A DNA stretch of 64,000 bases from a virus, in the IMG/VR virus record IMGVR_UViG_3300030202_003733, positions 64,001-128,000 of that record; one strand, given 5' to 3'. A model generated the notes under the pieces. It ran no database searches, was not told where the DNA came from, and worked only from the letters and a program-made list of their open reading frames with translations. The stretch's first letter is position 1; every line of letters starts with the position of its first letter. This document shows, piece by piece, positions 9,126 to 60,900 of the stretch. Position numbers and translations under genes: made by a program.

Positions 9126-9455
9126 TTAAATGTCCATGGCCGTGTCGTCTTTCATATCGCCCGAATCAGAATGATATCTTTCGATCTCATCCATGAGCGA
9201 ACCAAAGAACTCAAGCAGCTCTGTGTTTTTCTCTAGTTTTCCCACAATGTCTTCGTTATACTCGTATCGGTCTTCCTCGCTAAGAGTCATACCCTTTGCT
9301 TCAAAGGCATCAAGTATGGCAGAAGCGATAAACTTAGAAGTGGACCCCATCTCGGCTTGTCTGGCTGCGTGATACGCAAACCCGGCCTCCTGTATACGGC
9401 CCACCTCTTCTTTAATAATACTCTTTATTCTTTCTTTTGTAAGTTTAAGTTTCAT
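9126..9455 (-). CDS. Small protein with the shared N-terminal tag
   Basis: MKLKLTKERIKSIIKEEV...RIQE. Confidence 0.75.
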   Translation of the reverse strand: MKLKLTKERIKSIIKEEVGRIQEAGFAYHAARQAEMGSTSKFIASAILDAFEAKGMTLSEEDRYEYNEDIVGKLEKNTELLEFFGSLMDEIERYHSDSGDMKDDTAMDI

Positions 9456-20689: not shown

Positions 20690-21088
20690 TTAAATTAAAG
20701 CTTTCCAATTTTTTCCACCAACAGATAAAATACCTGAGATATCTACCCCTGGGTCTGACGGATCAGTATCAGCAAGGGGATCCGCTGCTACTTGTGTTTT
20801 ATTTTTTTGTGCCGGTGCAGGTGTCAGACCCTCAAAAATATTTACACCGTTAAAAGCATCAGCCCCTATAGAATCTATGAGCTTCTTTTTTCCAGCAGAT
20901 AAATTATTATTGATAATCCTCTCTGCCTTAACAGGCACGACTCGTGCCGATTCCTCAATCACTGGACTGCCTAACCCAGTGACCACCTCGGATACAATAC
21001 CAGAGAGGATTCCCTCTTCTAATATAACTTCTTTAATACATTGTTTAATCAAAGGCTTCAATACCTTCTTCAAATCCCCAGACTTCAT
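20690..21088 (-). CDS. Hypothetical head-region protein with tag-like N-terminus
   Basis: MKSGDLKKVLKPLIKQCIKEVILEEG. Confidence 0.7.
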   Translation of the reverse strand: MKSGDLKKVLKPLIKQCIKEVILEEGILSGIVSEVVTGLGSPVIEESARVVPVKAERIINNNLSAGKKKLIDSIGADAFNGVNIFEGLTPAPAQKNKTQVAADPLADTDPSDPGVDISGILSVGGKNWKALI

Positions 21089-21690
21089 TTTTCCTTCCTT
21101 AATATTTCATTTAAAGCGTAATTGATTCTATCTTTCTTGGAGAGACCCAGTGATCTCTTTTTTCCCTCTGTATACATATATGCCTCAAAGGTCGAGGGCT
21201 CGGACACAAAGTCAAAACATATTAGCTGGAAGTCGTCTTGTACAATTGTATTGCCGTTCCTATCTGAAACAGAGCCCATCCCCCTGGACGATATGCCTAG
21301 CTTTGCGCCAGCCTTAGCAAGTTCTTGCAGAACTTTACCGCATGGTGTATTTAAAACTTTAACTTTACCCATCACCTTATTACCTTCCCACCAAGAATCA
21401 ACAACCATGTGAGAAACCTTTTCCAGAGTAATGACAGAACTATCAGGGTGGTCTAGTTCTCCAAGGGCTCTACCCTGCTTGATGAGATCATTATATTTCT
21501 GCATCTCTCTTTTAAGAATTTCTTCACTATATATCCTTCCATTCCCATTTTTCTGGTCTGAAGCTTGCATGCACCCGGTCATAAAAAAAGCAGTCCCATC
21601 AGACATTTGCCTTTTTTCGCTTTCAGTTAGGTAGTCTTGACATATACCACCGTCACACAATTCATAGTATTCTCTTAGTAAGTTCTTCAT
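21085..21690 (-). CDS. gp21: Prohead core protease (T4 gp21-like)
   Basis: NGNGRIYS, ALGELDHP, VSH, LGISSRGMGS, ICFDFVSEPST. Confidence 0.93.
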   Translation of the reverse strand: MKNLLREYYELCDGGICQDYLTESEKRQMSDGTAFFMTGCMQASDQKNGNGRIYSEEILKREMQKYNDLIKQGRALGELDHPDSSVITLEKVSHMVVDSWWEGNKVMGKVKVLNTPCGKVLQELAKAGAKLGISSRGMGSVSDRNGNTIVQDDFQLICFDFVSEPSTFEAYMYTEGKKRSLGLSKKDRINYALNEILRKEK

Positions 21691-29144: not shown

Positions 29145-32100
29145 TTAAAAATTAACAAAAGCATAGTCACCTTTTTGCTCTATGCTTATTTGTGCATCCA
29201 CACAATCCTTAAGTGCTTCAAGGTGTGATATCAACAACACAGTTTTAAAGTGTGATTTGATCATATTCAACATTCTAGTGAAACCCTCCATGTTCTCTTC
29301 GTCTAGGGCTGTGCCCGGTTCGTCCAAAATAAAGACGTCACCTTTGGGAAGGTTCGACACGGAGAGCATGGCCAAGCGAATAGCCATCGCAGCAATTGTT
29401 TTTTCTGCACCTGAGCCCATCTCAAGCGGTCGCGGGTCTTGGTGGAAATGTTGGATATGTATATTTAGTCTTTTGCCGTCATCTTCAAAGAATACACCAA
29501 AATCTACAATGTTAACAAGGAATTTAGCTATCTCCTCATTAATGATTGGTAGTTTTTTCTTAATAATATCGTAGGCAATCCCATTGCTATGCATACACTT
29601 GAGGTACAAATCATAGGCGGAATATTCTCTCCTTAGGTCCTCAAGTTCCTCTTGTTGTTCCTTGAGGTTTTCAATTCTTTGTTCTAGTGAACCAATTTTC
29701 TTGATACTCATTCTTAATTTATTATCTAAGTCATTATCCAGTCGCTTAGCTTCTTGAAGACTCGAACTCTGCAACGTGGACTTTTCAGTTAATAGTCTTT
29801 CTAGATTTTCAATCGCATCTTTGTTTTGTTCATATTCTCTTCTTTGTGCCTCTAGCCGGACTTTGTCGGCTTTGGCCGAGGCTATGGAATTTTTAGCCCG
29901 CTCCATAGAAAGCTCAACCCTGTTCTTTTCAATAATCGAAGTGTCCCTCTTTCTGCTAAGTGTCTCGTGTTTCTCAATGTTGCCCACTGTAACCTCGGGG
30001 TCCAAGGCTAGGCGCTGTTCCCTTAACCTTCGAACAGAGTCTTCAACGCCCGGCTTCTTTGTCAGCGACTGTTCAGCTTCACGTAAGCATTTACATCCCC
30101 TAAGAAATTCAGGGTCTTGTAATGAAGATATTTTTTTCTCAATCTGAGCTAATTCTCTGTCGTAGTTCTCGATCTTCGTTTGTAAGCCATCCATTTCTCG
30201 TTTTCTGTCTTTGAGTAATGGCATATCTAGTAAAACCAAAAATTGATTTATGTTTTCCACTAACTCTTCTAGCCCGATCAGTTCGCTAGCCCCTTTTGAC
30301 AGGAGTGCTTCATGTTCGGTTATTGACCGCTCAGCCGACTGTATATTACTAATGACTGAGTTGATATCAATGGGCTCAGCGGGAACATTATCAATTTTTT
30401 GTTGTAGGTCTGATATCTGGCTGGTGACATCTAGGACAGACTGCTTTGATTTCTTTTTATCTTCGACTAGTTCCTCGTGTTCAATCGAAGCATCAGACAA
30501 GTCAGACACCACATCGTCGATCTCAGATGAAAAATCCTTACCCTCTAATCTTTTTAAAGCTCCTTTAAGATCGGAGGCATCTTGTTTCGCATATTTAAAT
30601 TTTTTATCAAAAAGTTCAAGATCAAGAAATTTAGCAAAAATCTCTTTTCTTTTTGTTGAACCCTCGCGAATAAAAGACAAAGAGTCCAATTGAGATGACA
30701 TCGATGTTAAAAGAAAGTCGTCTACTGTTCCAAACTTACTTCTGATTATTTTGTCCGTCTCGGCTCTAGTCATCCCGTTATGGTTTTCGACAACGTTACC
30801 ATAATGTGAATTAAATTCAACACTTGTCTTGGCCTCTATTATTTCCTCGCCTTTTGACTTTTTGGTATATTTTTCTAATGATCTGTCAATTGTCCATTGG
30901 GTGCCATCCGCCGTTTGCAAAACCGCCTTTCCAAACGCGGTGTCTTTGTCGTAATTAATTACATTGACACTTTTTCTTTCGTTTTTAGAGGTAGTGTTGA
31001 ACATCGTGTACAACAAGCCATCAATTATGCTAGACTTGCCCGAAAAGTTTTTACCAAAAATACCAACAATGCCATTTGTATTTTCAAAATTAATTACATT
31101 GTCTTCGCCATAGTTGAATAGGTTATTGAAAGTTAGCTTTTGTAGCTTCCAATTAACATTTCTTTGTACCTCTTCGTTCTCCTCTGCCATACGATTGTAT
31201 TTATCGTTAAGGTCTAAAATCTTTTTTAGAATCTCTTCCTCTAGTTCGTACCCCTCAAGGAAGTCTTTTATAAGCTTTCTTTGAACCACAATGTTACGCA
31301 GGTCATCGTGTCGTATACTATCAACAACTTCCTCTATATCTCCACGAGAGTGTATATTTCTATTTAGAAAAGTTAAGCTCTCTGGGGAAAACTTGTGCTT
31401 GGCTATGTCGACAGCCCTTTTCATACTCTCTAGAGTAATGCTCTCTGTAGAGGCCAACCTCAGCCTAGAGCCCTCTGGGACATCCACCTCAGGCAGCTTT
31501 CCGTTCTTCAGTTCTATGGTTACGAAGGGCTTTGGATTGGAAAAAACTATCTGTTTAACTGTAAAGTTATCCCTATCTTGAATGTCCCAAATTAAAATAC
31601 CTTTATCAACCTCTTCCCCAAAATTTTGTTGTATTGTCGAGCCTGCGTATCGGACACGACCCGCCTTGTCCAATTTTTGTGCTTTGTGTATGTCACCCAA
31701 AAAAGCGTAATCAAACTCTTCAAATATTTCTACTTCATTTTCTCCACTATCCATCACCCAACCACTGTCCGTCTGACAGTTGGATATTGAGCCGTGATAA
31801 AGAGCTATGTTGACGTTGTTATAATCTGTTGGATCCTGCCAGTTGTCCTCATCAAACACAGAGAGAACGTTTAAAGCAAACCTATCACGCAAATAAACCT
31901 CGCAAGAGTTTTTCAACAAGTGCAAGTTGGGATGCTCAAGGGCCTCCACAATGGGCGAAATCGCATCGAGTCGCCCCGAGTTTTTGAGGTTCCCATCATG
32001 GTTGCCTAGAATGATATATGTTGGGGCTATATCTGCTAAACTCGACAGGAAGTCAGAACACATGTTTACAAACTCAGGGGATATCTGAGTCTTGGTATGG

Positions 32101-32237
32101 GCGATATCCCCACAGTGAATTATATAATCAACGTTCTCGTTCTTAATTGAATCATACAATTGTTTAAAAACAGATTTATATTCTGCATGGTATCGCAGGT
32201 TTCTAATGTGTGTATCAGCTATGTGAGCAAACTTCAT
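29145..32237 (-). CDS. Fused SbcD-SbcC (Mre11-Rad50; T4 gp47-gp46) nuclease-ATPase
   Basis: HIADTH, GDIAH, GNHD phosphoesterase motifs; GKNFSGKSS Walker A; coiled coil; MGSGAE signature; FILDEP Walker B; LISH. Confidence 0.93.
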   Translation of the reverse strand: MKFAHIADTHIRNLRYHAEYKSVFKQLYDSIKNENVDYIIHCGDIAHTKTQISPEFVNMCSDFLSSLADIAPTYIILGNHDGNLKNSGRLDAISPIVEALEHPNLHLLKNSCEVYLRDRFALNVLSVFDEDNWQDPTDYNNVNIALYHGSISNCQTDSGWVMDSGENEVEIFEEFDYAFLGDIHKAQKLDKAGRVRYAGSTIQQNFGEEVDKGILIWDIQDRDNFTVKQIVFSNPKPFVTIELKNGKLPEVDVPEGSRLRLASTESITLESMKRAVDIAKHKFSPESLTFLNRNIHSRGDIEEVVDSIRHDDLRNIVVQRKLIKDFLEGYELEEEILKKILDLNDKYNRMAEENEEVQRNVNWKLQKLTFNNLFNYGEDNVINFENTNGIVGIFGKNFSGKSSIIDGLLYTMFNTTSKNERKSVNVINYDKDTAFGKAVLQTADGTQWTIDRSLEKYTKKSKGEEIIEAKTSVEFNSHYGNVVENHNGMTRAETDKIIRSKFGTVDDFLLTSMSSQLDSLSFIREGSTKRKEIFAKFLDLELFDKKFKYAKQDASDLKGALKRLEGKDFSSEIDDVVSDLSDASIEHEELVEDKKKSKQSVLDVTSQISDLQQKIDNVPAEPIDINSVISNIQSAERSITEHEALLSKGASELIGLEELVENINQFLVLLDMPLLKDRKREMDGLQTKIENYDRELAQIEKKISSLQDPEFLRGCKCLREAEQSLTKKPGVEDSVRRLREQRLALDPEVTVGNIEKHETLSRKRDTSIIEKNRVELSMERAKNSIASAKADKVRLEAQRREYEQNKDAIENLERLLTEKSTLQSSSLQEAKRLDNDLDNKLRMSIKKIGSLEQRIENLKEQQEELEDLRREYSAYDLYLKCMHSNGIAYDIIKKKLPIINEEIAKFLVNIVDFGVFFEDDGKRLNIHIQHFHQDPRPLEMGSGAEKTIAAMAIRLAMLSVSNLPKGDVFILDEPGTALDEENMEGFTRMLNMIKSHFKTVLLISHLEALKDCVDAQISIEQKGDYAFVNF

Positions 32238-35164: not shown

Positions 35165-35965
35165 TCACTCTCTAAAGTCCCCGTAAATATATACCATTGG
35201 CTCATCAATATCAAGAGACTTTTTTGTTAAGCCTGACATCGCCTTAAACGAGTGCTTGTAAAAACCATCGCGCATTTTGTAATCTACAGAAGGACCACCA
35301 TCAAACAAAATACCGTCTTGGATATTGAAGTCTAGTCCGATTGATACAATATCCTCAATAGTAACCAAACCAAGACGACTGCTTGAAACCACAATGACAA
35401 TATTACCCGATGAATCTTCCCCAACAAGACTTCTGTAATTTTTCTTCTTGGCAGATTCCGCTTTCATGATGTTCCTGTTTGCTTTGCCATTGTTTATACC
35501 AACCAATAGTGTCTGCGAGTTATGCTCCGTCAGTGGTGGGCTGCTGTAGGCTTGAACGTGTGGGGTGCCATTCTTTACATAGAAGTATCCGCCGCCCCTG
35601 ACACGGCTTGAGCGTCTTTTTTTATCAATCACTACAAGCCCTATCGGGTCTTGTTCGCCAAAGAAATTACTGTTTAGAAAGAAATCCTTATCTGTAGGCT
35701 TCTCTGTGGAAACTCCAAATTTCATCTTGTTTTTGGGAATCACAAAAACCTTTAAAGATCCCAAAGGTAGATATCCTCCGATGCATGAAGTCTCATACAC
35801 TGTCATGTGTTCTGTTTTGCTCAGAGTAGTGTAGTCATAAGACTCGCGTTGATCAAAGAACAAGTTGTTGTCAATCGCAGGCCAAACAAGCGGATCAATC
35901 ACAGGTGTTTGTGGTGTCGCGTAAAGCATTGCGGCAATGAATGTTGTAATGGTTTTAATGTTCAT
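35165..35965 (-). CDS. Phosphodiester glycosidase family protein (NAGPA/DUF2233-like), probably exported
   Basis: FFLNSNFF, NYRSLVG, GILFDGGPS; hydrophobic N-terminus. Confidence 0.65.
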   Translation of the reverse strand: MNIKTITTFIAAMLYATPQTPVIDPLVWPAIDNNLFFDQRESYDYTTLSKTEHMTVYETSCIGGYLPLGSLKVFVIPKNKMKFGVSTEKPTDKDFFLNSNFFGEQDPIGLVVIDKKRRSSRVRGGGYFYVKNGTPHVQAYSSPPLTEHNSQTLLVGINNGKANRNIMKAESAKKKNYRSLVGEDSSGNIVIVVSSSRLGLVTIEDIVSIGLDFNIQDGILFDGGPSVDYKMRDGFYKHSFKAMSGLTKKSLDIDEPMVYIYGDFRE

Positions 35966-35999: not shown

Positions 36000-37786
36000 T
36001 AGATTTCTTTGTATGTTTTCATATTTTGCGCCACTTCACTTATGTAACCAAGGGATGTAAGGAAACTATCGCCTCGTGGTGTTTTGAACGCTGGGATATA
36101 GTTTTGTGCGACAGGCTCCTGCTCAGTCTCCTCACATTTCTTTTTTATCTCGTCAGTACCGCAGTAGCTTGTGACATTGTCTGGGCTTGTATTATATCCG
36201 ACAAGTGCCATATCAAGAGCGGCTCGGCCAGTTGAAGTAAACTTCTGTCTAGAAACGCCGGGGGAGTCCGTGCTATAACCTATCTTAGCGGCCTTTTTAT
36301 ATAGCAAGGCGAGAATGCCTATCGCGGCTATTACCGCTTTAGAGTAATTCGTGACAGACATAGCTCCTTGAATTTCCATTTTTTTAGCGTAATCAGCAAG
36401 CTCAGCATCTTCATCACCAAAATGTTGACCATATCTCACTTGAGCAGGGCCTATAGATGTGTCCCCTACCGTCAGAAGAAGCCAGCCAAGTGCGCCGTCT
36501 CGATATGCTATTGATTTAGTAATCGGATTATTGGCAGTGATCGATGCCATGTTTTCAACCCATTTGAGGACATTGTATCTTTTGCCTTTGCCAAAGTCAC
36601 TCTCTCTGCCAGTGACGCCTACCGCAGCATTTGTTAAGAGCCGAAGAGTTTGTTTATCAATTCCCAAAGATTTCATTATGGACCCTTGACTAAGTGTAAC
36701 TGCGAGCACGGCGTTTTTTATATTGTCAGGCAAGTTAGTATCATTAATTTTACTAGTCGCCACGTCTGCCTTGGTGGGGCGCTGGGCCATCGACCCCTTC
36801 TCCTCTGAAAGCACCTGGGGTGACTTGTTCCACATAATCTTAATTGACCCTCTGCCACTACTATTTTTTATGTAGCTTAGCGGTTCTGCCTTCACGGTTC
36901 CCTCGGCTTGATGAAAAATAACTGGCTCGCCATTGCTTATAGCCCCTACAAACCCTAAGTGTGTATTCATGCCAAAACCCTTACCAGATAGGATGGTATT
37001 ACCCGGCACCCATTTGCCGCCCTTTTGAACAAAAAATGGCCCGTCTCCAGCCTTTGTCTCTCCCCCTTCTTGATTTGGGCTCATGCCTGTGGCCCCCTGT
37101 TTAAAAGCTGCCTTAAAGTTCGAACTACCTTGATAATAAAGCCCCACTATATCTCCGAGCTTCAAAGCGCGTTGCCACATAGATTGATCTGGTATAAGTT
37201 TTTTTACAAACTTCTCCACATCTGAGTTTCGCTTTGCTCTGATATTTGCAAAAAGCTCAGTGGCCTCAATAGCAAGATCCTTGCTTATATTTTTAAAAGC
37301 AGAATATTTGACCTGGCTTAAGCGGTGTTGGTGCCACGCATTGCCCCTGCTACCTCCGGTTGTTTTCAGCGTATCAGAAACCCACTGAGCGCATCCCCGG
37401 TCTTTACATTGTAGCACATTACTTTTTTTACCCGCCTTAATGTCTTCCTCGGCGGTCTTTAGGTTTTCAGGCAAGCCCTTGTAATACTGTATGCCCTCTT
37501 GCCCGAATATATAATTATAAATTGATTGAAGTACCCCTGGTCCTCCCTCTTCACCGGCAGCCTTCAGAACCTTGCCTAAACTTTCGGCGTCCGTAATCCC
37601 TTTTCTTGCAAGTTTGTTGCCTTCTCTCTTATAAGCGTCATAAGACTTTTTGTCGGGAGATAAAATATAATAGAAAACGCTATCACCCGGCAGCTCAATT
37701 GCACCACGGGGCAACGAGGCCTCCTTCAGGTAGGCCTTCAGTTCTTCTTCAATGATAGATTCTATATCGGATTTAGTTACTATCAT
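35987..37786 (-). CDS. Tagged dual peptidoglycan hydrolase (NlpC/P60- or CHAP-like + lysozyme/SLT-like)
   Basis: MIVTKSDIESIIEEELKAYLKE tag; GCAQWVSD...GDIVGLYY...NTHLGFV; GRESDFG...SIGPAQV...GYN. Confidence 0.7.
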   Translation of the reverse strand: MIVTKSDIESIIEEELKAYLKEASLPRGAIELPGDSVFYYILSPDKKSYDAYKREGNKLARKGITDAESLGKVLKAAGEEGGPGVLQSIYNYIFGQEGIQYYKGLPENLKTAEEDIKAGKKSNVLQCKDRGCAQWVSDTLKTTGGSRGNAWHQHRLSQVKYSAFKNISKDLAIEATELFANIRAKRNSDVEKFVKKLIPDQSMWQRALKLGDIVGLYYQGSSNFKAAFKQGATGMSPNQEGGETKAGDGPFFVQKGGKWVPGNTILSGKGFGMNTHLGFVGAISNGEPVIFHQAEGTVKAEPLSYIKNSSGRGSIKIMWNKSPQVLSEEKGSMAQRPTKADVATSKINDTNLPDNIKNAVLAVTLSQGSIMKSLGIDKQTLRLLTNAAVGVTGRESDFGKGKRYNVLKWVENMASITANNPITKSIAYRDGALGWLLLTVGDTSIGPAQVRYGQHFGDEDAELADYAKKMEIQGAMSVTNYSKAVIAAIGILALLYKKAAKIGYSTDSPGVSRQKFTSTGRAALDMALVGYNTSPDNVTSYCGTDEIKKKCEETEQEPVAQNYIPAFKTPRGDSFLTSLGYISEVAQNMKTYKEIYRLF

Positions 37787-37798
37787 CTAGGAAGTTCC

Positions 37799-40018
37799 TT
37801 ATGCTACGCCAGTGTCGCCACGGCCAGCGCGGCCAGCCCTCTTTGCAAGTCTGCCTGCGGCTTTCTCGCGACCTGCGCCAGAAGCAAGCTGTGACAATTT
37901 ATCTGCCCTAGCGGCTCTAACTTGTTTTGCAATATTTTTAAGCTGCGGGTCTCCGACGCCATACTTGTCTTCTGCATTGGCAAGAATCCTATCTGCTGCC
38001 CTTCTTACTTCGCCAGGTGTATTAGCTTTAGCAATCATACCACGCCAACCTCTTGCCTGTGGGGCCGGGGTCTTAGCTTTTGGCATCGGCACATCTGAGG
38101 TCATGGCGACCTGACGTGGCGGAGTTGTCATTTTTACAACGTCATCGCGGTCAAGCTTGACACCTTTGCCTGCTCTTTGTGCAATAGATGCAGGTGGTTT
38201 GGGTGAGGGTCTATCCGCGACCGTCTCAATATCACCGTAGGTCTTCACTGGAAGGGTAAGCTTTTGGCCAACACGAATCAAGTCAGGATTTTTCTCCAGT
38301 TCTGGATTTGCCATGATCATATCCCGGACAGTTATGCCGAGTCTTTGTGCGATCTTGGAAACAGAGTCACCCGACTTAACAGTGTATTCCTCATTAAGGT
38401 TGATCTTTCTTCTGTGAGTTTTCATCACATCCACGGTCTCTTCTTTAACCATTGACTCTATAAGTTGTTTGGTGATTTTCATTGTTTTAGTTCCTTCTTG
38501 TATACCTTTGTCATCTGCATAAGCTTGTGCAACCCTACCCCTTGCAGGGGTGCCTGGTGCTGGTGCTTTTTTAAATCTTTGTTTACGAGCCCTATCAGCG
38601 CGTTTACCAGCTTTTCGGTCAGCCGATGGTCTAGTTTCTTGTCTCGTGAGCCTAGCCTTTTTTGTTTTGAATTCTTCAATCTTCTTGTCTGCTATCCTAA
38701 CAATATCTGCTGGCAAGTAATCGGTTTTGAGGCTAACATACCTTTTCATAATAGCTGGTAGATTGCGAGGCTTCTCCGGTATTGCTCTTCTGTCCGGGTC
38801 CCTTCCTTTTTGAGCATACTCTGTTCTTATCCTCTGTAGGTCCGCAATTGCGCGATCATACTCTTGCATAGCTTTAGAGCCCGTGAACGTAGGGACCGGA
38901 ACGTTTTCTTTTTTCTCTTTCTCTACTTTAGCCTGTTTTGGCTCAACTTTTGTTTCAGGTGTTTTTGGATCGGCTTTACGCTTAGGAGTAGGGCCGCCTT
39001 TGAGAGACGCCTTGTATTCCTCCCCATACTGTGCCCATGCTTTTCTTATATATGAATTATTGTATGGTCCGCTTGGGTCAAGATCAATTTGTCTAGCGTA
39101 GTCCGAGTGGGTCTTATTTACCCATGCTCTGAATTTATCACCAGTGGTTCGGTCTACAATAACACCGCCAGTAAGAACTGCCATAGCGACTCTGCCGCCG
39201 CCGCCCTTCTTGTCATCTTTCTCTTCTTTTTCCTCTTCGGGCTCTTCCTCTTCACCACCAAGTATTTTATTTTCATCTAACGCTCCGGTCTTAGGATCCC
39301 ACTGATCTATCTTATGACCATCGAGCAGGGCCAGCGCGATTGTTTGAAGGTTTTTACCAAAAGCCTTAACTAAACCACCCGCAGCGAGGCCAGCGCCGGC
39401 TGCACCGGCTGCTCCTCCCGCAGCAACACCGGCAGGTATTGATAGACCACCAGTAAACCCAGCACCAGCGAGGCCAGCAACCCCTCCGGCAGCAGCACCT
39501 CCAATACCGCCAGCAACAGCAGCAGCGCTGCCGGCAGCAGCGGCTTGGATCGCCGCGTTGGTCAGTTCACCCTTTATGTGTCTCCTCAGGGGCGCACCAG
39601 CATATTCTTTGTATGCGGCCTCAATTAATTTGTTAGTGCCTTCATCATTAGCCAAGTTACCAATAAGTTTTGATTCATTCGTGCCAATACCCGTGCCGCC
39701 TTTCATAGATTGGTAAAGTGCTCGCACTCTAGCATTTATTAGAGCTGTCCCGGATTTACCAGCGTGCTCGTTATAATAGTCCATGGAGGACTTGCCTCCA
39801 GCAATACCTCTTGACGTCATTTTCCAAGCAGCCAGCAGATGTTTCCATTTGATTTTACCCTCTCCGGGGACGAGCCAGTACTCCTCACGCGCTTCCTGTG
39901 GGTCCTCTGCGGCGGGCGCGGCCTCTTCCTCTTGTTCAGATATTTCGTTTAAGTATCTTTTATACTCTTCTTTAACAATCTTGTTGAGGTCTTGAGGGTT
40001 CATTTTTACTTTGCTCAT
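37799..40018 (-). CDS. Tagged multidomain protein: annexin-like repeat, glycine zipper, LysM
   Basis: ALYQSMKGGTGIGTNESKLIGNL...IEAAYKEYAGAPLRRHIKGELT; Ala/Gly hydrophobic tract; YTVKSGDSVSKIA...NPDLIRVGQKLTLP. Confidence 0.75.
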   Translation of the reverse strand: MSKVKMNPQDLNKIVKEEYKRYLNEISEQEEEAAPAAEDPQEAREEYWLVPGEGKIKWKHLLAAWKMTSRGIAGGKSSMDYYNEHAGKSGTALINARVRALYQSMKGGTGIGTNESKLIGNLANDEGTNKLIEAAYKEYAGAPLRRHIKGELTNAAIQAAAAGSAAAVAGGIGGAAAGGVAGLAGAGFTGGLSIPAGVAAGGAAGAAGAGLAAGGLVKAFGKNLQTIALALLDGHKIDQWDPKTGALDENKILGGEEEEPEEEKEEKDDKKGGGGRVAMAVLTGGVIVDRTTGDKFRAWVNKTHSDYARQIDLDPSGPYNNSYIRKAWAQYGEEYKASLKGGPTPKRKADPKTPETKVEPKQAKVEKEKKENVPVPTFTGSKAMQEYDRAIADLQRIRTEYAQKGRDPDRRAIPEKPRNLPAIMKRYVSLKTDYLPADIVRIADKKIEEFKTKKARLTRQETRPSADRKAGKRADRARKQRFKKAPAPGTPARGRVAQAYADDKGIQEGTKTMKITKQLIESMVKEETVDVMKTHRRKINLNEEYTVKSGDSVSKIAQRLGITVRDMIMANPELEKNPDLIRVGQKLTLPVKTYGDIETVADRPSPKPPASIAQRAGKGVKLDRDDVVKMTTPPRQVAMTSDVPMPKAKTPAPQARGWRGMIAKANTPGEVRRAADRILANAEDKYGVGDPQLKNIAKQVRAARADKLSQLASGAGREKAAGRLAKRAGRAGRGDTGVA

Positions 40019-51939: not shown

Positions 51940-54900
51940 TTAATCGCCCACCTTTCGTACAGCCTCGTTGTGTGCGTCCCCAAAGGACATCCCGGCTTCC
52001 ATAGAGTTTACCATTTCTAATATGTGTTCCGAAGAGTGGTGTTGGGAGTGGGCTCTAAGATCTGATTGCTGTTGTATGGTCAATCTAGACACGTCTATAT
52101 TGTTAACTGTTGGTACAGAATCAGATTCAATGCGACCGGTCGCAGAATTTCCGGTATCTAAAGTAATTTCTGTATCCAATTTAACAAACTCAACTAAAGA
52201 AAAGAAATCATATGGCCAGTTGTAGCTGTATTTTTCCTTTTGTGTCCTTCCAAGGGTAACCCCAAAATCATAAACATCACTCTTCCCCTTACTACTAATT
52301 ACCTGCTCATAGTAATTTGTCTCTGCTTTTTGCTTAACTTTAAAGACCATAAATTTCATATTGTTCATATTACTTGGCTTGAGCATCTCACCGACCATCA
52401 GAGGGTGTGTGATAGTAGATTCGGCTTGCTCAAAAGAGGCTCCAATATCGGGTGGTATATTTTGCCAGATGTATGATAAATCATCTTTAGATAGAGTCTG
52501 TGAAAACTCAAATACATACATGGCCACAGGTTTGACCGCGTTAGGGAAATTGATAAAGTCCATATATGGAGGGAATACATACTCATTCATAGCTGTAACT
52601 AGCTTCCCAACTGAAGACTCTGGCGTGGCATTTCTAATGGTATTTTTGGGAATATTAAAAAATTTCTTTCCAGCGCCTGTTTCCATAAATGGAACAACAA
52701 CCACTGCCTCTTTAACAACTTTGCTGTCTGAAAGTTCGCCCAGCCTAGTAGAGGTTTTCTCGAATGGTACAACATCCAATAGAGATTTAATTCGACCGCT
52801 ATCATATTTATTAGTCACTAAAGCTGGGGCATACGACAATCTGTTATGAATCCAGTTTCTTGGAATCTCTTCAATTTCAAGAAAGATGCCTTTGTCGGGT
52901 GCATCTGGCATAAGCCCAAACTGGTGCCACATACCTCTTGGTACCGACTCGGAGCCGTGCTGTGGAATAGTTAAAGTTCCTTTATTTATATCGGTTTGGA
53001 ATCTACCGTCTGACGCGGTTATGGGCCTGACGCTATTATCGGCAAAATTAAGCATTGGTGTTTCAAATTTTGGCTGTATTACCCACACACCCTTGTTGTC
53101 AGTCTCGGTATCAGACACAGATGTCACATTGCCAAATTCATCATATTCAATATTTTTTTCTGTAGCCCGACCAAAGATGTTCAGTGAAGCTGAGACTTGC
53201 ATCGCGTTCTTATTGATATTTTGTCTCGAATAAATACTACAAAGTTCTGTGGTTGGCCCTCCATTGGGGCCGGTCATTGTGTGTTCATCAAATCTAAACG
53301 GCACTTGGCTTGCACTAGTAAAAATTTCTCTTAATGTGTGTCTGTCCGACGATGCAGAGAATATTATATCGTACCAAGCTTCCCCATCATAGTATGGTGG
53401 AGTGAACCCAGGGTTTAAACCACCAAGAGAGTCCATCCGAAGTCTATTAAAATTACCATCCTTTCTGCCGGAGCCCGGTGGACCAAAAGCGCTCGGCCTA
53501 CTGTACATGGTAAATGTTTCTCGTATATTGTTGTTCAATACTTCACCAAGTGTAAGGTTCGGAACAGGGAATGGGCTAATAGTAGTGTTGTCCGCGCCAG
53601 TACCAGAAACATAAGTTCTTGGCTGGTTGTAGCTTCTTCTAAGCTTAATTCTTGCGGCGTAGTATTGCCCAGGAACAAACTGTTTAAATTCATTTTCCGG
53701 CTTGGACCTAAGAGTGGTAAACTTTCCGTCTGGAAGGAAGAAAGACGGAACTTCAGCAAAAAAATTGCTCGCCATCATACTATAAAGACTGTCCCCATCT
53801 CCTGTCCAAGAAGCTGTAACATTTAGGCGACAATCAGTATGTGGTTCCATATCGACCATAGTCATATTTTTAACGTGCCTTTCTGGATTGACGATGGCCT
53901 CAAACGGTATTCTCCTATCAAAACTTGCTGTACCCAGCCCAGTGCTGCCGGGGTCTGGCCCTCTAGGCGATCCGGAAACTATCATGTGATAGTCAAAACC
54001 TTTTGCTACTCCCGAGGTTTGTACATAATACGACCCAGTGAATATTGGGTAATCTACTGCAAGACCGGACTTTATAGAGTTATACATAATGCCAGGCGCA
54101 TATGCCCAATTCATAAATGGTCTCCATGCGGCTTTTGGATAAAGCGTAGCATCTTGTACAGTTTGACTTGAAGTTGCATTTATATATTTGCCATAGGACT
54201 TCGAAAATTGCGAGGCCAACTCTAGCGTTCTCTCCGCTGGGTAGAACCCGTTGTAGGGTAAGAATTTTTTAAGCGCTTTCATTTTTAGTGTTAATGAAGA
54301 GGGCTTAGCCAGCCGCCTATGATCGGTTTTCATTATTTCAAAATATTTCATGAAATCGCTAAAAGAGAAAATGGTGTAAAAATTATCAACACTACTATTA
54401 TTAGGAACATCCGAACTGTCAGGAATACCAAACATACTAAATGATGATGTGTTGTCTGCCAGGAAGTTGTTACTAGAAGATACAACATATTTTTCTATAT
54501 GTTCGCTTATTCTAAATTCAGGTACTAAACTATAATCTTTATTTAGAAGTCTTAAACTCTCTGCGTAGTCTTGGTAAGAGTCATACCAAGGATTTCTTGA
54601 AGCCGAAACAAAAACACCATCAACGACCTTGCCTGCGGTGCGACCAGCATCCCAAGCAGCGTTTCCGCCGGAAATCTGCATAACTCCCAGAGGGAAGTTG
54701 CCGGCGGGTATAGCAACAGAACGCGTCTCAGGTATGTTTATAACGCCACCCGCGTTACCGTATCCCACTACAGAGCCTGTTGCAGATAACATGTGTTTTC
54801 TGGCATACAACGCTGAAGCTGTCAGGTGTGTTTTGTCAGTATGGTGTACTTGAACATAGTTATTTTGTAGCTCGCCCGACTTCTTATCTGAAGCGCTATA

Positions 54901-57900
54901 GTTTATAGTTGCTACAACGAGACCAGTTTCAAAATCCTCGTTAGGATCAAGTGACCAGGCACTTTGTTCTATCCCGTCCATACCAAAAACCGTCTTTTTG
55001 TCAGCACCAAGGGTGGTCCTTTTCAGTCTATCGTCTCTCCAGAAATTGTTTGCAAAGTCAGTTCTTTCTCTAATTTTATTAGAATACACATTTTTTTCAG
55101 AGGGATAAACGGTTTCCGAGCACACTAGCTTAATAAAATTATCTCTGTTATATTTATCCTTCATAATATTATAAGTTAATTTCTTGTCAGAGACGGGTGT
55201 ATATCTACGTGACAATTCGTCGTTGCTGTACAAAGAAACCACATTTGCATATGAGCTTTTAACAGAGATGGGAACTGAGTTATGCATGATCACTTGCTGG
55301 ACCGGCTTATACTTGGATATAACAGGCGATTCTCTATAGTGTAGTATCTTGCCATACCTTGCCGGGGCCTGTACCTCATACGCGGAGCCAGTATCGGAAC
55401 CCCTTGTATGCCTTGTAATTGTATCTTCTTGTAAAACAGATACCGTATGGTTGGCAACCAATGCCCTGGCAACAGGGTGCTCCCCTGTCCTAATCTGCTT
55501 CCACATGGGGTATCCGTAAGGGCCGTTCCTTTGGAGCATTAAGCCATTAAAAATAGCCACTGTGGCTAGGGCCTCGCTTGTACGCATCCTCTGAACAAAA
55601 GCCTCTGCATTAACGGTCGCGCCTTGCCATAGCTTTCCACCTTCATCGCCATGATTAAGATAATAGCCAACATCGTGGTCAAGGACATAGCCAAGTTGAT
55701 TGTCTGACGCCGTTACAGGGTCCCTTATCCCTAAATTAAGTTTTACAAAAGCAGCAACGGGAGAGTGTTCTCCAAAAGCAATTCCAGTTGCTTCTTTTGG
55801 ATTGTAAACAAAGACCGCTTGGGGAGCCTGTCTCGTTGTTTTGAAATCGCTCGCGCTTGCAAAAGTAATAGCCGAGCTATAACCAGAAGAAGCAGAGTAC
55901 TCACCATCGGGGTGAGCATAACCAAGAATCTCTGCGGATTTAGACCCATGAAGATAGTCAGATCCCTTGTTTGCCAAAGCGCCCGTTATCCAAGCATACT
56001 GCAAGTCGCTCTGGGGAATAGGCATGCTCACAAAGCCATTACTAAACACCGTGCCCGTTGTATAGTTGGCAGGCTGAAAATCTTTTCTGGAGTTGCCGCC
56101 AGCATGGGTGTCTGTTTCTTTGTACACTATTTGCCTACGAGTGTTTCTATTGGTGTTATGGAAGCTCGCAACGGTCGTAGAACCAGATTTATATCCAAGA
56201 CTCTCAGCATGTTCTTTAAGGAACGTCCTGTTCAGAACCTTTCTTACGGACATATTTCTTGTGTTAAGGTCGTTGTAAGGCGAGTATTGTCCAGACTCAA
56301 AGTCCAAGCCAACACCACCAAGTGCATCTCCTGCGGTTTCGGGGCCTCCCGGAGCCGAGAACCTTTCCACAATAACATGCTCCGACTTATCTCGGGCAAC
56401 TTTTTCATAATCATTTACTCCGGAGACAAAAGTTGATACAAGAGCGCCTGTAGTAAAACCCTCAGATTTTATTAAAGTTCTATTGTTCAACGATCTGTCA
56501 GAGGACATGACCAGTTCATAATGTTTTGTAAAGTTGCCTATGCTGCTTACCAACGTACCAGAGACGTGGCGGGTGTGGTCATGTCTATGTTTAATATTTC
56601 TGATATTCACCGGTCTTTTTGCCACCTCTTCCCTCATAAACATAGCCTTTGGCCTTGTGGGGTTACCCCCATGCGCGGGGTGAAAAAAGCTAACGCCCTC
56701 AGTGGGAAGACGAAGATCCCAGGCTTCGGGGCGATCTGGGAATCCAAATGAATTTACGTTGGCATTGTAAGTAAGGTCATTGTCTGGGCGACCTGGGTTG
56801 AGGTTTTGGGTGAGAAATACGTGTCTGTGTTGGTGGCCCCCAACAAATCTTTCGGTGAATGGTCCCTGCATCCCGTGCTCACCAGAGTCGTACCCGTCAA
56901 CGTGCAGGTTATCAATTGATGTAGCCTCATCATTAAGAAGTTGGTGGTAGCCTGTTTGAATGGATTGATTGGACGCTGAGCCCAGCGCTGAGGGGGTGAA
57001 TGGAAGAATTTTAGATGCTTCTAGTAAATTTTCGTCGCGGACGCCACCACCTCCGGAATATTTCCTCACCTGTTTTATCTTATACTTCTGTTTTAAATTT
57101 GGATTTACTTCATCGTTTACATTCACGTTATACAATGAGGTTGAATCCTCAGTATATTTATCTGTGACAAATACTAGGCGTTGGTTGGGGGAGTGGTCAA
57201 AAGGCAAATTGGCCTTGAAAGCAAAGGGCTTCTTGCCCTCAGGGAAATTCACACCATTATGGATATAATTTTTTCTTGTATAATTGCCAGGATTTGTAGT
57301 GTTATAACCATGGGTATCTGACCTACCAGTTATTTTCAATGGAACACTGTTGTTTCTTTTTTGATTCTGTCTTGATATGTTCAGCAGGTTCTTCTTGACA
57401 GAAGTAACAATATTGCTGACCCCTGTGTTTAAGCTGGCGTTGTCTCTCTCGGCCCTGTTTTTCCACCAATAAGCGTTGTCTTTCTCACTTGCGCGGCGTC
57501 CACCAGTGAAACCAGCAATCGTAGTTTGGCTTATGTCGTCGGTAATAGTTGTATTGGCAGAGTCTCCTATATGAGCCTGCGTAAGGGTTATGGACTGCTC
57601 CCCGTCGTCCTCGTCTGGCACAGCAGAGACAGTAATTTTACCATTGTGCCCATTCGCGTGTTCTATTGCAGCCTTGAGTTGAACAAGAAAATCGTTTTGT
57701 GTTGAAACAGTGCCAGTTGTGTTGATGGCGACAGCAATTCCCCTTGCCAGTGCTGAGCCTGCTGTGCTCGCGCCTGTGTCTGTCCCAGCCTCTAAAACAG
57801 TTCCGGTTGCGACAGTCGTCGCGTTATCATCAACGATAACATAAGTTAACTCTTGGCCGTCAGCAGAAGTTATAACTATGCTTTCTTTTTCACTCATGCC

Positions 57901-60900
57901 ACAATTAGCGTCTCCATCTGCGACAGTAATAGTTGCAGTTGCAAAAGCCGGGCTAACAGTCGGAGCGTGTGCGTATCTCCAGTTCAGGGTGTTGGGGTCT
58001 GGATAAAAATAATTTACGCCTTTTATCCCAGCCTCGATCGTTCCTTTTTTAAGTTCAAGACCGGGGAACTTATTGTGATATTTACTTCTTTCTAGGGCAT
58101 GGCTTTCAATAACAGTCCTAACTTCTCCAGAAGAATTAGCAGATATTGGAACCAACTGATTAAGAAACTCTGACAAGGACGAGTCTAACCATTTATAATA
58201 TTTAACATACTTGTCAATGTCTGGGGCGTTAAACTGCTTTTCAAAGAAAAGCTGCCTTAGCTTGCCCATTTCTTTATAATCTTGCCTATATCTGTTGACC
58301 GGGTCTCCGATCAAATTATTAAAACCTACTATCGTGGAAAATAAATTAATCATCTCCTCGGAGATCGTTTGATACATGCTCTTTTCGATAGCAAAGAAAT
58401 TGTTTATTGGTCTGCTTGTTCTATCAAACTGTTCGTCATCAAACGTAAGAATATTAACTGTATCTGAACTATCTAGAACTTCAGGCAGTCTCTGTCTTGA
58501 AGCATAAACAAGCCTCTCATTAATGGACCCAGTATTATCTGTCTCGAAACTATAGCCCCTACCCCCAAAATAAGACTGTAAATTAAATTTAGTATTGGCC
58601 GCCACTATCGGATATCTGTCACCCTTTAGCCCATAGGATCCGGGGTGAGCGGTGCTATAAGCTTCGCTACTGCCAGAACTAAAGTCTCTAACTTGAAACT
58701 GTCCGTCAGTGTCCGAGCCTGTGACATCTGCAAAATTCCAATGAAGCAACAAGGTGTCCATTTCTGGAATATATGAACTACTGATGCCATCCGGGCTATT
58801 TATCAAATGATCCTGTTTCTCACGGAAAAACGCGGCATTTCTGTAAGGGTTTGGAGTCCCGTATGAAAGTGGATCTTTTGCGTGAGCTAAAATAGTATCA
58901 TTATCTATGTTATGTTGCCAAAGTCTAAAAGAAGTTGCCTCAACATCAGAAAATTGTGCGACTGCGCCAGTAAAATTTTCACGGCGGGCACCGACATAAT
59001 ATCGTCTATTAACAGAGATGTATCTCGCAGCCGTTGAGGTCGTAGAACTAGTGGTTAGAAGAAACTCATTTTGAACAGCGCCCAGTTTAGTGTTGACACC
59101 ATAGAATTCAAATTCCATATAATTGTCCCCAGTCTTAAAAACGTTGGAGCCTGTGGTGAGCCCAATTTGAGAGGACTTCTGTTTCGGGTTCAGACGCCTA
59201 ACCGCAAAATTCCATTTAGTATCATCATATACATCCTTAAACAAGCTTGTCGTAAGATGGACCGTTACCGAGCCCGCCTGGAGGCTGCTCGTCAGCAAGA
59301 AGTAGGCATCTTTAGAGCCAACTTCAGGGCGGATTGCAAACAATTGCAAACCCCACTCGGATCCATTGCCTATTCCCAACCACTTGAACGCAGCGGGATT
59401 CTTCGCGCTCTGCACACCGTGGGAACCATAGATTGAAGATGTGATAAACGGAGTTATAAAATAATTTTTAGAATTTACTGGGGGTTTCTTGGGGAAAATT
59501 ACTTCAATTTCTTCAGTGAAATCAAAGTGCTCTCCCAGATTCGTCGCGCTGCCAGAGACATTCGTAACGGCGTGGCCGTATTCTGATTCCCCCGTCGCAA
59601 CGGTGTCAGAGGAGGACTGTTGAACAACAACCCCAGCGAATCTGTTGGGATGGTTGAAGCTGACATAATTTTTTCTAACAGCAGTATCTTTCCGGTTATC
59701 TTCCAATTTATAAGTAACATTATCGCCATACATGTTAATTTTGATTAGCTCATCATCGACGCCATAACATCTAATAAGATTTCTAAAAGATTTTTCTGTT
59801 CCCTTTGATTTATAAATGTAAGTCAGATTATTGTAGATATTTTGATAAATTAGATTTTTTATATCACTTAACTCTTCTTCATAGATCCTTTCTCCGTCTT
59901 TTGATTTGATTCTAGAGACTATATCAGAGTCAACAAAAATTTCCGGTGTCATCATACCCGCATTCTCTAAAAGTTTATTAGAAAACGGATAAGGTTTTAA
60001 ACTTGAGCTTGTATAGCGTGTATCTTTTATATCAGGTATTTCTCGAACTTGTAAATGAAGCTGGTCGAAGTAGCTGGCTATTATCTGGGTGAGATTTAGT
60101 ATCTCACCCTTCTTTTCTTGATGGCTATCTTCATCGATTATCCAAGATGGAAGCGTATAATAAATTGATGAGTTGTTTATATAGTCATGAGCACTGCCGG
60201 ACGATTGAAGTTCTGCGTACAGATTGGCAACATCAGCGTGTTCTTTGTATATTATTGGGTCTCTAAATTCTTTAAAGGCCGCGCTCGCAGATACAATAGC
60301 GGAACCAGTATTTCTAGAATTGGGTGCTCCTCCACCATAACCGGAGCCACTAACCCACGCACCATTTGAGATTCGACCCGAATAGTCTAGCACAGATGCG
60401 TCAACAGAGCTAGTGCCAGTTATACCCTCATTAAATTTATAGTAAACGCCCAACTCTGCGTTAGCTATGTCCTCGTTGGTTCCACCCCCTACTTGTGTGA
60501 ACCAATTCGTTCCTATGTCTTTGCTAGTCCTCTTGGTTTTCCAATATCTAAACTCGTCCAGAGATGCTGACAATTTGCCGTAACCATTAAAATCAGCAGA
60601 GGCAGTTGTGTCGGTGACAGTATAGGGGGCAGTTTGTATTGCTCCAAGGTATGCCTTCATCGAACCGGTTATCTCGCCCCACTGGTCGACTGACGAGGAT
60701 GTGGCCGTTTCTTTTAAAACACCATTAACATAAAATTTTGCCTCAAACGTGTTGTCTGTCTGCTGGAGAAAAGAGAACGCGTAATGGGTCCAACCAGAGG
60801 TCGCTATAGATGCTGTCGTTACGGAGGAGCTATAACCAAAGGACAAATCCCACACATTCGCGTTTGAGTTGGCCCCAGAGGCTATTTGGATTCTAAATGG

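Follow-up and report, generated by a model that had tools for sequence, protein, structure and literature searches.

A bacterial-type annexin repeat joined to a LysM domain in a protein of an uncultured marine T4-like phage

The stretch of DNA analysed here (the window) comprises 64,000 nucleotides, positions 64,001 to 128,000 of the IMG/VR virus record IMGVR_UViG_3300030202_003733, and the gene under study is a minus-strand open reading frame (ORF) at 37799-40018 encoding a 739-residue protein, P0001, which reads as quoted in an earlier note made on this DNA from its letters alone. Residues 96-155 of P0001 form a single true annexin repeat, of the bacterial MKGG(x)TGxGT subtype, and a LysM domain lies further downstream in the same protein. 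The string quoted in the earlier note corresponds to residues 99-153 and its coordinates (39360-39735) to residues 95-220, which encompass the annexin repeat together with an Ala/Gly-rich tract (residues 156-220). With slightly less than even confidence, P0001 is interpreted as an envelope-binding tether between cell wall and membrane, which would be loaded into the capsid by means of a T4-like clip-off tag and freed at infection.

The annexin repeat of P0001

Annexins are the textbook Ca2+- and lipid-binding proteins of eukaryotes, and bacterial examples number a few dozen. The repeat of P0001 was assessed using profile, single-sequence and reciprocal searches. A profile of residues 1-260 built from four family members was searched against the PDB, and all 60 of the matches listed were annexins or annexin A2 fusions, the best being annexin VI (E 1.2e-21), with a single annexin A4 repeat scoring 27 bits. 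A phmmer search of 1.84 billion representative proteins with residues 45-157 yielded ten matches, including the family orthologue P0003 and the short relative P0008, with E values of 2.4e-10 to 3e-4 for true annexins; seven of the eight matches checked were Pfam-positive annexins (Pfam E 7e-30 to 7e-141). When a repeat-only profile was used, individual repeats of bacterial multi-repeat annexins reached 55 bits, and comparison with P0007 using hhalign gave an E value of 8e-6 and a probability of 83%. The second repeat of the bacterial annexin P0025 contains the identical 12-residue string M-K-G-G-T-G-I-G-T-N-E-S, and the alignment of P0001 with 16 bacterial repeats was clean from helix A through the D/E turn. 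No shorter homologues of residues 40-160 turned up in a word-indexed search.

The conservation of the putative Ca2+ site is consistent with these searches. Loop residues G107, G108, T109, G110, G112, T113 and E115 and the acidic cap residue E151 show no variation, even in relatives of 35% identity. E151 lies 38 residues past T113, compared with 39 in annexin A4, there being a one-residue gap in the B-C loop, and it aligns with the cap Glu of annexins A4 and A6. The profile and phmmer matches and the invariance of loop and cap thus bear out the annexin-like repeat proposed in the earlier note. P0001 carries one repeat only and lacks the four-repeat core of annexins; bacterial annexins with single or few repeats are nevertheless accepted members (PMC3894181).

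A search for Pfam PF00191, which had been suggested as a check, gave a divided result: single sequences remained below the gathering cut-off of 25 bits (15.9 bits for P0001, 17.8 for P0003 and 16.7 for the segment alone, with no match for P0004), whereas the profile searches were specific to annexins. The low single-sequence scores are attributed to the bacterial-type loop, because repeats of this subtype have an AB loop two to three residues longer than eukaryotic K-G-x-G-T and the Pfam model mostly reflects the shorter loop of eukaryotes. That the resemblance to annexins arose by chance or from composition would agree with these sub-threshold scores, but it is barely credible, being refuted by the profile and reciprocal searches and contradicted by the phmmer matches, the PDB profile, the scores of the bacterial repeats, the alignment and the structural superposition described below. 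A weak match to EAD1 (E 0.016-0.054) was also observed, coinciding with the annexin repeat.

A first structure model, calculated from the alignment of four family members only, had a mean predicted local distance difference test (pLDDT) score of 36 and was unusable. The second model, for which 16 bacterial annexin repeats were added to the alignment, reached pLDDT values of 63-85 across residues 91-155 and contained helices A-D; helix D extends into the Ala-rich tract, and no distinct helix E could be made out. The top rows of a Foldseek search with this model were nearly all annexins, none of them at E <= 0.001, with local superpositions of 1.0-2.5 Å over approximately 60 columns. Using VIA-align, the model superposed on annexin V with a Z score of 8.7 and a root-mean-square deviation (rmsd) of 1.2 Å over 58 residues, on isolated domain 1 of annexin I with a Z score of 7.7, and at best with a Z score of 10.4; because the alignment behind the model contained annexins, these values indicate compatibility with the annexin fold rather than independent proof of it. 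Of the five-helix fold that the earlier note had expected, helices A-D appear in this annexin-informed model and match annexin repeats in superposition, whereas helix E does not appear. The block following the tract (L-Q-T-I-A-L-A-L-L-D-G) resembles the A-x-A-L-L-x-G end of bacterial repeats. When the LQTIALALLDG block was spliced on as helix E, an assignment that would turn the tract into an insertion in the D/E loop, the score was 52.6 bits, compared with 51.8 bits for the native sequence and 53.0 bits for a control splice, so that the splice could not be told from the control.

Domain layout and the Ala/Gly-rich tract

The LysM domain was identified with a score well above the curated Pfam cut-off and over the full length of the domain (PF01476, 44.2 bits against a cut-off of 20.9, E 1.9e-11, profile positions 1-43 of 43), and LysM chains in the PDB matched P0001 with E values of 5e-9 to 6e-6. 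The domain had been named in the earlier note, as had the charged linker (residues 254-273) and second tag (residues ~510-544) downstream of the tract, and all three were found. The features of P0001, together with the other sites discussed below, are as follows.

37799-40018 (-), whole gene, 739 residues, P0001; translationally coupled to the upstream RuvC-like gene, base 40018 being common to both
39938-40018 (-), N-terminal amphipathic tag, residues 1-27, ending L23-N-E25; further genes of the phage bear the motif
39884-39937 (-), acidic linker, residues 28-45, of varying length, with indels between orthologues
39734-39883 (-), conserved helical segment preceding the annexin repeat, residues 46-95; W58, L61, A64, W65 and M67 invariant; modelled at low confidence
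39554-39733 (-), annexin repeat, residues 96-155, helices A-D and D/E turn, from sequence searches, alignment and model
39674-39706 (-), AB loop M105-K-G-G-T-G-I-G-T-N-E115, an invariant block; GxGT is G110-T113; extended type II Ca2+ loop of bacterial type
39566-39568 (-), E151, acidic cap residue, invariant
39359-39553 (-), Ala/Gly-rich tract, residues 156-220, apparently a lineage-specific insertion of variable length
39260-39358 (-), conserved block, residues 221-253, G-K-N-L-Q-T-I-A-L-x-L-L ... D-x-W-D; directly after the repeat in orthologue P0026; possible helix E
39200-39259 (-), acidic linker, residues 254-273, read from the sequence
38999-39199 (-), conserved domain of unassigned fold, residues 274-340, within the alignment of residues 221-345 (mean column identity 89%)
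38492-38893 (-), conserved basic helical region without known relatives, residues 376-509
38387-38491 (-), second (internal) tag copy, residues 510-544, with conserved sites I506-Q-E508 and L541-N-E543 on either side
38249-38386 (-), LysM domain, residues 545-590
37802-38248 (-), C-terminal region, residues 591-739, a Pro/Lys-rich stretch followed by a conserved basic helical tail
37700-37786 (-), tag motif of the 599-residue neighbour
9380-9455 (-), tag motif of a 109-residue gene beside the sheath gene
21085-21690 (-), T4 gp21-type prohead core serine protease (Peptidase_S77), E 8.5e-26; would be the tag-removing enzyme

The conserved helical segment of residues 46-95 may pack against the single annexin repeat. 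No signal peptide or strong transmembrane segment was found in P0001, no segment being hydrophobic enough for Sec insertion, and no catalytic domain was detectable in Pfam, PDB and region-profile searches. Profiles of residues 376-512 and 595-739 had no match in the PDB.

A candidate identity for residues 221-345 as a light-harvesting complex (LHC)-like domain was rejected. The match to fucoxanthin chlorophyll-binding protein (E 0.0065) arises through G-R-V-A-M-A-V-L-T-G-G, of which the Arg is absent in P0004, and the acidic low-complexity linker adds to the score. The underlying segment, residues 270-288 (39155-39211, minus strand; G-G-G-R-V-A-M-A-V-L-T-G-G-V-I-V), matches the chlorophyll-binding helix of fucoxanthin chlorophyll a/c proteins with E values of 0.0065-0.04, probably by chance.

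The Ala/Gly tract of approximately 65 residues described in the earlier note is present directly after the repeat, and its 65 residues include 26 Ala, 20 Gly and 13 large hydrophobic residues. Its length is 65 residues in P0001, 66 in P0003, 36 in P0004 and 0 in P0026/L005, its sequence is poorly conserved, and in P0026 nothing separates the annexin repeat from the conserved block that lies behind the tract in P0001. This comparison of orthologues points to the tract as a lineage-specific insertion, placed after the D/E turn and before the next conserved helix. No tandem DNA repeats were found inside it.

The same tract had led to the proposal that P0001 is an ejected protein whose Ala/Gly zipper oligomerises as an inner-membrane channel, either a DNA conduit or a depolarising effector, with the annexin repeat docking it and the LysM domain anchoring it. 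Glycine-zipper pore toxins delivered by contractile machines exist, and the tract sits directly behind the D/E turn, which is the membrane-facing side in annexins. The spacing of Gly residues at i+4 and i+8 is above composition in P0003 (eight GxxxGxxxG against 1.7 expected, P 0.0006) and marginally so in P0004 (two against 0.33, P 0.056). In P0026 (L014:4996-8175), residues 520-610 hold the second tag, a Gly/Ala/Arg-rich stretch and then the only clearly hydrophobic segment (residues 586-606, Kyte-Doolittle mean 1.64), and a Gly/Ala module therefore exists at another place in that protein. The variable length, absence in one orthologue and poor conservation of the tract weigh against the channel reading, however. 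Its best 19-residue Kyte-Doolittle means were 1.49 (P0001), 1.42 (P0003) and 1.08 (P0004), all below the usual transmembrane threshold of 1.6. Searches against glycine-zipper families gave no significant match (none for P0001 in Pfam to E 10; DUF1269 at E 0.47 for P0004; SlyB at E 0.49), and the Gly periodicity of P0001 itself was not above composition (seven at lag 4 against 5.6 expected, P 0.28; three GxxxGxxxG against 1.5, P 0.20). A glycine-zipper channel was thus not borne out and is considered distinctly improbable. The tract may instead add weak membrane affinity or act as a membrane-touching loop.

Relatives and genome context

Full-length homologues of P0001 are few, comprising one cluster at 97% (13 members, on contigs of up to 183 kb) and two clusters at 66-67% identity; one further viral contig shares the synteny of P0001. 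A distant positional orthologue, P0026 (1059 residues), has the tag, the annexin repeat and a second tag, and its synteny is as in the window, with a 483-residue gene, a RuvC-like gene and the annexin gene followed by primase and SbcCD. In L005 the orthologue is split by a TAG codon (530-532) into the 140-residue P0008 and a downstream ORF, and recoding of TAG was considered, the codon aligning with the invariant Q225. This was rejected in favour of a nonsense variant or assembly error, as the full-length P0026 has GAG (Glu) at this position.

Annexin repeats were also found beside wall-binding domains in other phage proteins. A DNA pattern scan of IMG/VR identified a 745-residue protein (L011:148-2385, plus strand) with a PG_binding_1 domain at residues 305-358 (E 3.4e-19) and two annexin repeats scoring 47.5 bits, above the Pfam cut-off; its gene adjoins a family B DNA polymerase, and it is homologous to P0001 in the annexin repeat alone (37% identity over 57 residues). 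A profile search yielded nine further clusters, P0044-P0052 (712-795 residues), an abundant marine family with an N-terminal PG_binding_1 domain (at times with PG_binding_3 in addition), one annexin-like repeat reading L-Y-L-S-M-K-G-G-T-G-I-G-T-S and a basic C-terminal tail. One member is encoded at L016:10001-12358 (plus strand) on a phage-like 30-kb marine contig that carries typical phage auxiliary genes (ribonucleotide reductase and 2OG-Fe(II) oxygenase). Because LysM occurs in P0001 and PG_binding_1 in otherwise unrelated phage proteins, the sequences indicate that phages joined annexin repeats to two different wall-binding domains at least twice.

When P0001, P0026, L011 and P0048 were compared with 50,697 GenBank phage records using tblastn, no match covered an annexin region. 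Neither P0001 nor P0026 matched any record; L011 matched via PG_binding_1 only, and P0048 matched via PG_binding_1 with one additional C-terminal match to Salicola phage SCTP-2; the last 77 residues of the P0044-P0052 family match a hypothetical protein of this phage. A search of the ESM Atlas gave no usable match. The degenerate DNA pattern for MKGGTGxGT(D/N) had two matches in species-representative genomes, both in non-coding frames and dismissed as chance. The one systematic survey, by Kodavali et al. (2014; PMC3894181), reports that viruses yielded no annexins, and a literature search returned no paper linking annexins to phage proteins apart from the cases of Photorhabdus virulence cassettes (PVC) and extracellular contractile injection systems (eCIS) discussed below. 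The statement in the earlier note that no phage example had been characterised accordingly holds for this literature and for the GenBank records searched.

The recurrence of such fusions also bears on the possibility that the two folds, annexin and LysM, have been put to a structural or protein-binding use, in the virion for instance, and bind neither lipid nor murein. LysM folds do occur in tails and baseplates, a tail tube initiator with LysM in the PDB was among the weak matches of P0001, there is one annexin repeat only, and an Asn stands in place of the Asp of GTD. On the other hand, within the N-terminal module no block is better conserved among the 35%-identical relatives than the Ca2+ loop with the cap Glu, as would be expected of a working site, and the pairing of annexin repeats with LysM and with PG_binding_1 in unrelated phage proteins points to an envelope function rather than chance reuse of a fold. 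Purely structural reuse is thus thought improbable.

The source record is 183,023 bases long with an estimated completeness of 81%, and all genes of the window lie on the minus strand. The phage encodes a contractile tail sheath, a T4 gp19-like tube, a baseplate hub, a portal, a large terminase, a major head protein and a T4 gp21-type prohead protease, and is an uncultured marine T4-like myovirus; in its large terminase it shares 44% identity with Flavobacterium phage immuto and 33% with T4-like cyanophages. DNA of the P0001 gene was detected in marine and seawater metagenomes, and none of the sequencing runs listed for it was an RNA run.

The neighbours of the P0001 gene encode a RuvC-like resolvase, a 599-residue protein, a NAGPA-like glycosidase, a primase and a fused SbcD-SbcC protein. 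For the 599-residue protein, sequence searches of Pfam, PHROGs, NCBIfam and the PDB gave no support for a peptidoglycan hydrolase. The NAGPA-like phosphodiester glycosidase (35165-35965, minus strand, E 5.9e-7) is encoded two genes downstream of P0001, and the same position in a relative (L001:3422-4024) is occupied by Peptidase_C92, a permuted papain-like amidase; because of this substitution, the slot seems to hold exchangeable envelope-acting enzymes. The SbcD-like (Metallophos) and SbcC/Rad50-like (AAA_23, SMC_N) parts are fused in one protein of 1030 residues (29145-32237, minus strand), and the fusion is kept in relatives (1030 residues in L001 and 1047 in L014). Just upstream of the P0001 gene lies a block of approximately 24 kb encoding large unmatched proteins: a 3244-residue ORF without Pfam or PHROG match (51940-61674, minus strand) is followed by ORFs of 391, 1059, 1139, 299, 370 and 492 residues, likewise without match.

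Proposed role and comparison with known systems

In the preferred interpretation of P0001 as a wall-to-membrane tether, the LysM end would bind peptidoglycan and the annexin loop with Ca2+ would bind anionic phospholipid of the periplasm-facing membrane leaflet, the protein acting in the periplasm with Ca2+ at seawater level keeping the annexin site loaded. The periplasm is proposed because the two ends are predicted to bind an anionic phospholipid surface and murein, and it is preferred to the cytoplasm because seawater supplies millimolar Ca2+ and the cytoplasm does not. Two routes into the periplasm can be envisaged, from outside with the virion or from inside via holin lesions. The virion route is favoured because P0001 has no signal peptide or Sec-grade segment, because its tag ending in L-x-E is common to other proteins of the phage and because a gp21-type protease is encoded. 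P0001 would thus be loaded into the capsid in the manner of T4 Alt and the internal proteins, trimmed by the protease and released onto the host envelope at infection; by analogy with T4, delivery from the virion is plausible.

The tag has the form x-T-K-x-x-I/L-x-x-I-I/V-K/E-E-E, with (L/I)-x-E about eight residues further on. It is N-terminal in the genes starting at 40018, 37786 and 9455 and in a 175-residue ORF elsewhere in the genome (near G000:C1:10143, minus strand), and an internal copy lies just before the LysM domain of P0001. The relatives P0008 and P0026 begin with the motif, and P0026 also has a similar motif at its end. Within the tag of P0001, residues L11, I14, V15, E17, E18, L23 and E25 are invariant among orthologues, and the candidate cleavage sites L23-x-E25, I506-x-E508 and L541-x-E543 are kept in all of them. 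The gp21-type protease (PF03420, 91 bits) is encoded between the portal and the major capsid protein. In T4, gp21 cuts after Glu and so strips the internal proteins and the large cargo Alt of their capsid-targeting propeptides (PMC9026906).

The absence of a signal peptide or strong transmembrane segment also fits a late accessory of lysis or egress, made in the cytoplasm and reaching the wall via holin lesions in the manner of signal-less endolysins, which would bridge murein and membrane and aid envelope disruption or hold debris. Wall-binding domains are typical of endolysins, most of the proteins that the sister family matches through PG_binding_1 in cultured phages carry an endolysin or amidase annotation, and the slot two genes downstream holds the NAGPA-like glycosidase or, in L001, Peptidase_C92. 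P0001 has no detectable catalytic domain, however, no holin or spanin was identified among the neighbours, and a role in lysis leaves the common N-terminal tag and the gp21-type protease unexplained. Such an accessory is considered unlikely, though not negligibly so.

Several observations weigh against the tether interpretation. P0026 has no LysM domain, so that wall binding is not universal in the family, and the P0001 gene lies among replication genes (RuvC-like, primase and SbcCD), outside the head module. T4 internal proteins enter the cytoplasm, a compartment that would offer few ligands to LysM or a Ca2+-dependent annexin. [LI]xE tripeptides are not enriched overall (nine against 5.9 expected, P 0.12), and the argument for cleavage sites is therefore confined to their position and conservation. 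The replacement of the Asp of GTD by Asn is a property of the P0001 clade, the Asp being retained in P0008 and P0026; a single annexin repeat may need a partner for folding; and the fold match, in which helix E is missing, depends on an alignment that already included annexin repeats, as noted above.

The finding rests on a phage-encoded annexin repeat with firm statistical backing and on unrelated marine phage proteins that pair such repeats with peptidoglycan-binding domains, a pairing that points to a role in the envelope, bridging wall and membrane in the Ca2+-rich periplasm. If P0001 were virion cargo, it would represent a new kind of myovirus entry factor; the steps from tail contraction to the crossing of the inner membrane by the DNA are poorly understood in myoviruses. 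A wider generalisation is rather doubtful but may be stated: aquatic phages would have repeatedly recruited bacterial-type annexin repeats as Ca2+-dependent docking modules joined to wall-binding domains, giving a widespread, so far unrecognised class of capsid-delivered tethers that prepare or stabilise the genome entry site, here with the Ala/Gly stretch as a membrane-inserting loop at the D/E turn. The repeat is also relevant to the debate on where annexins came from, since phages could carry them between bacteria and so be vehicles of their patchy spread.

Among known proteins, bacterial multi-repeat annexins with an MKGG(x)TGxGTD loop (P0025, P0005, P0010, P0013 and P0011, the last named 'annexin' and derived from a Candidatus Eremiobacterota metagenome-assembled genome) share with P0001 the extended AB loop, the helix pattern and the acidic cap, at 30-47% identity over approximately 60 residues, and some are likewise fused to unrelated domains. 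P0001 differs from them in its single repeat, the Asn after GT and a B-C loop shorter by one residue, and in being phage-encoded, fused to LysM and provided with an N-terminal tag. The eukaryotic annexins A4, A5 and A6 have the same repeat fold and type II loop logic (profile E 1e-21 to 1e-8; model rmsd 1.1-1.3 Å over 58 residues), but form a disc of four or eight repeats; P0001 has no tetrad, and its loop exceeds theirs by two to three residues. Glycine-zipper proteins (SlyB/17-kDa antigen type, DUF1269 and pore-forming toxins) resemble the tract of P0001 in being Ala/Gly-rich and in a conserved Pro for a possible helical hairpin, whereas the tract matches none of them significantly, is too low in hydropathy and is variable or absent in orthologues.

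Single annexin domains have been described on toxins loaded into the phage-tail-like PVC particles, with a proposed role as helper in membrane breaching or docking (Zhang et al., 2012; PMC3482391), and PF00191 is among the associated domains in a survey of eCIS (bioRxiv 10.1101/2020.09.22.308684). The toxins and P0001 alike have a single annexin domain and are presumed cargo of a contractile injection particle, the loading of P0001 being putative. In the toxins an enzymatic toxin domain comes after the annexin domain and eukaryotic targets are presumed, whereas the partner in P0001 is a wall-binding domain and the target would be bacterial. The T4 internal proteins and Alt (PMC9026906) resemble P0001 in their N-terminal propeptide-like tag ending in (L/I)-x-E and in the gp21-type protease, and Alt is of comparable size. 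The tag of P0001 is unlike the T4 capsid-targeting sequence in length (approximately 25 residues against 10), in its unrelated sequence and in having an internal copy as well; packaging and cleavage are putative in P0001, and the T4 cargo acts in the cytoplasm, unlike the site proposed here. L011 and P0044-P0052 share with P0001 a repeat with the MKGGTGIGT loop, a peptidoglycan-binding domain, a length of approximately 710-795 residues and a basic C-terminal tail, and differ from it in that the repeat alone is homologous, the wall-binding domain belongs to another family and lies at the other end, and no such tag is present.

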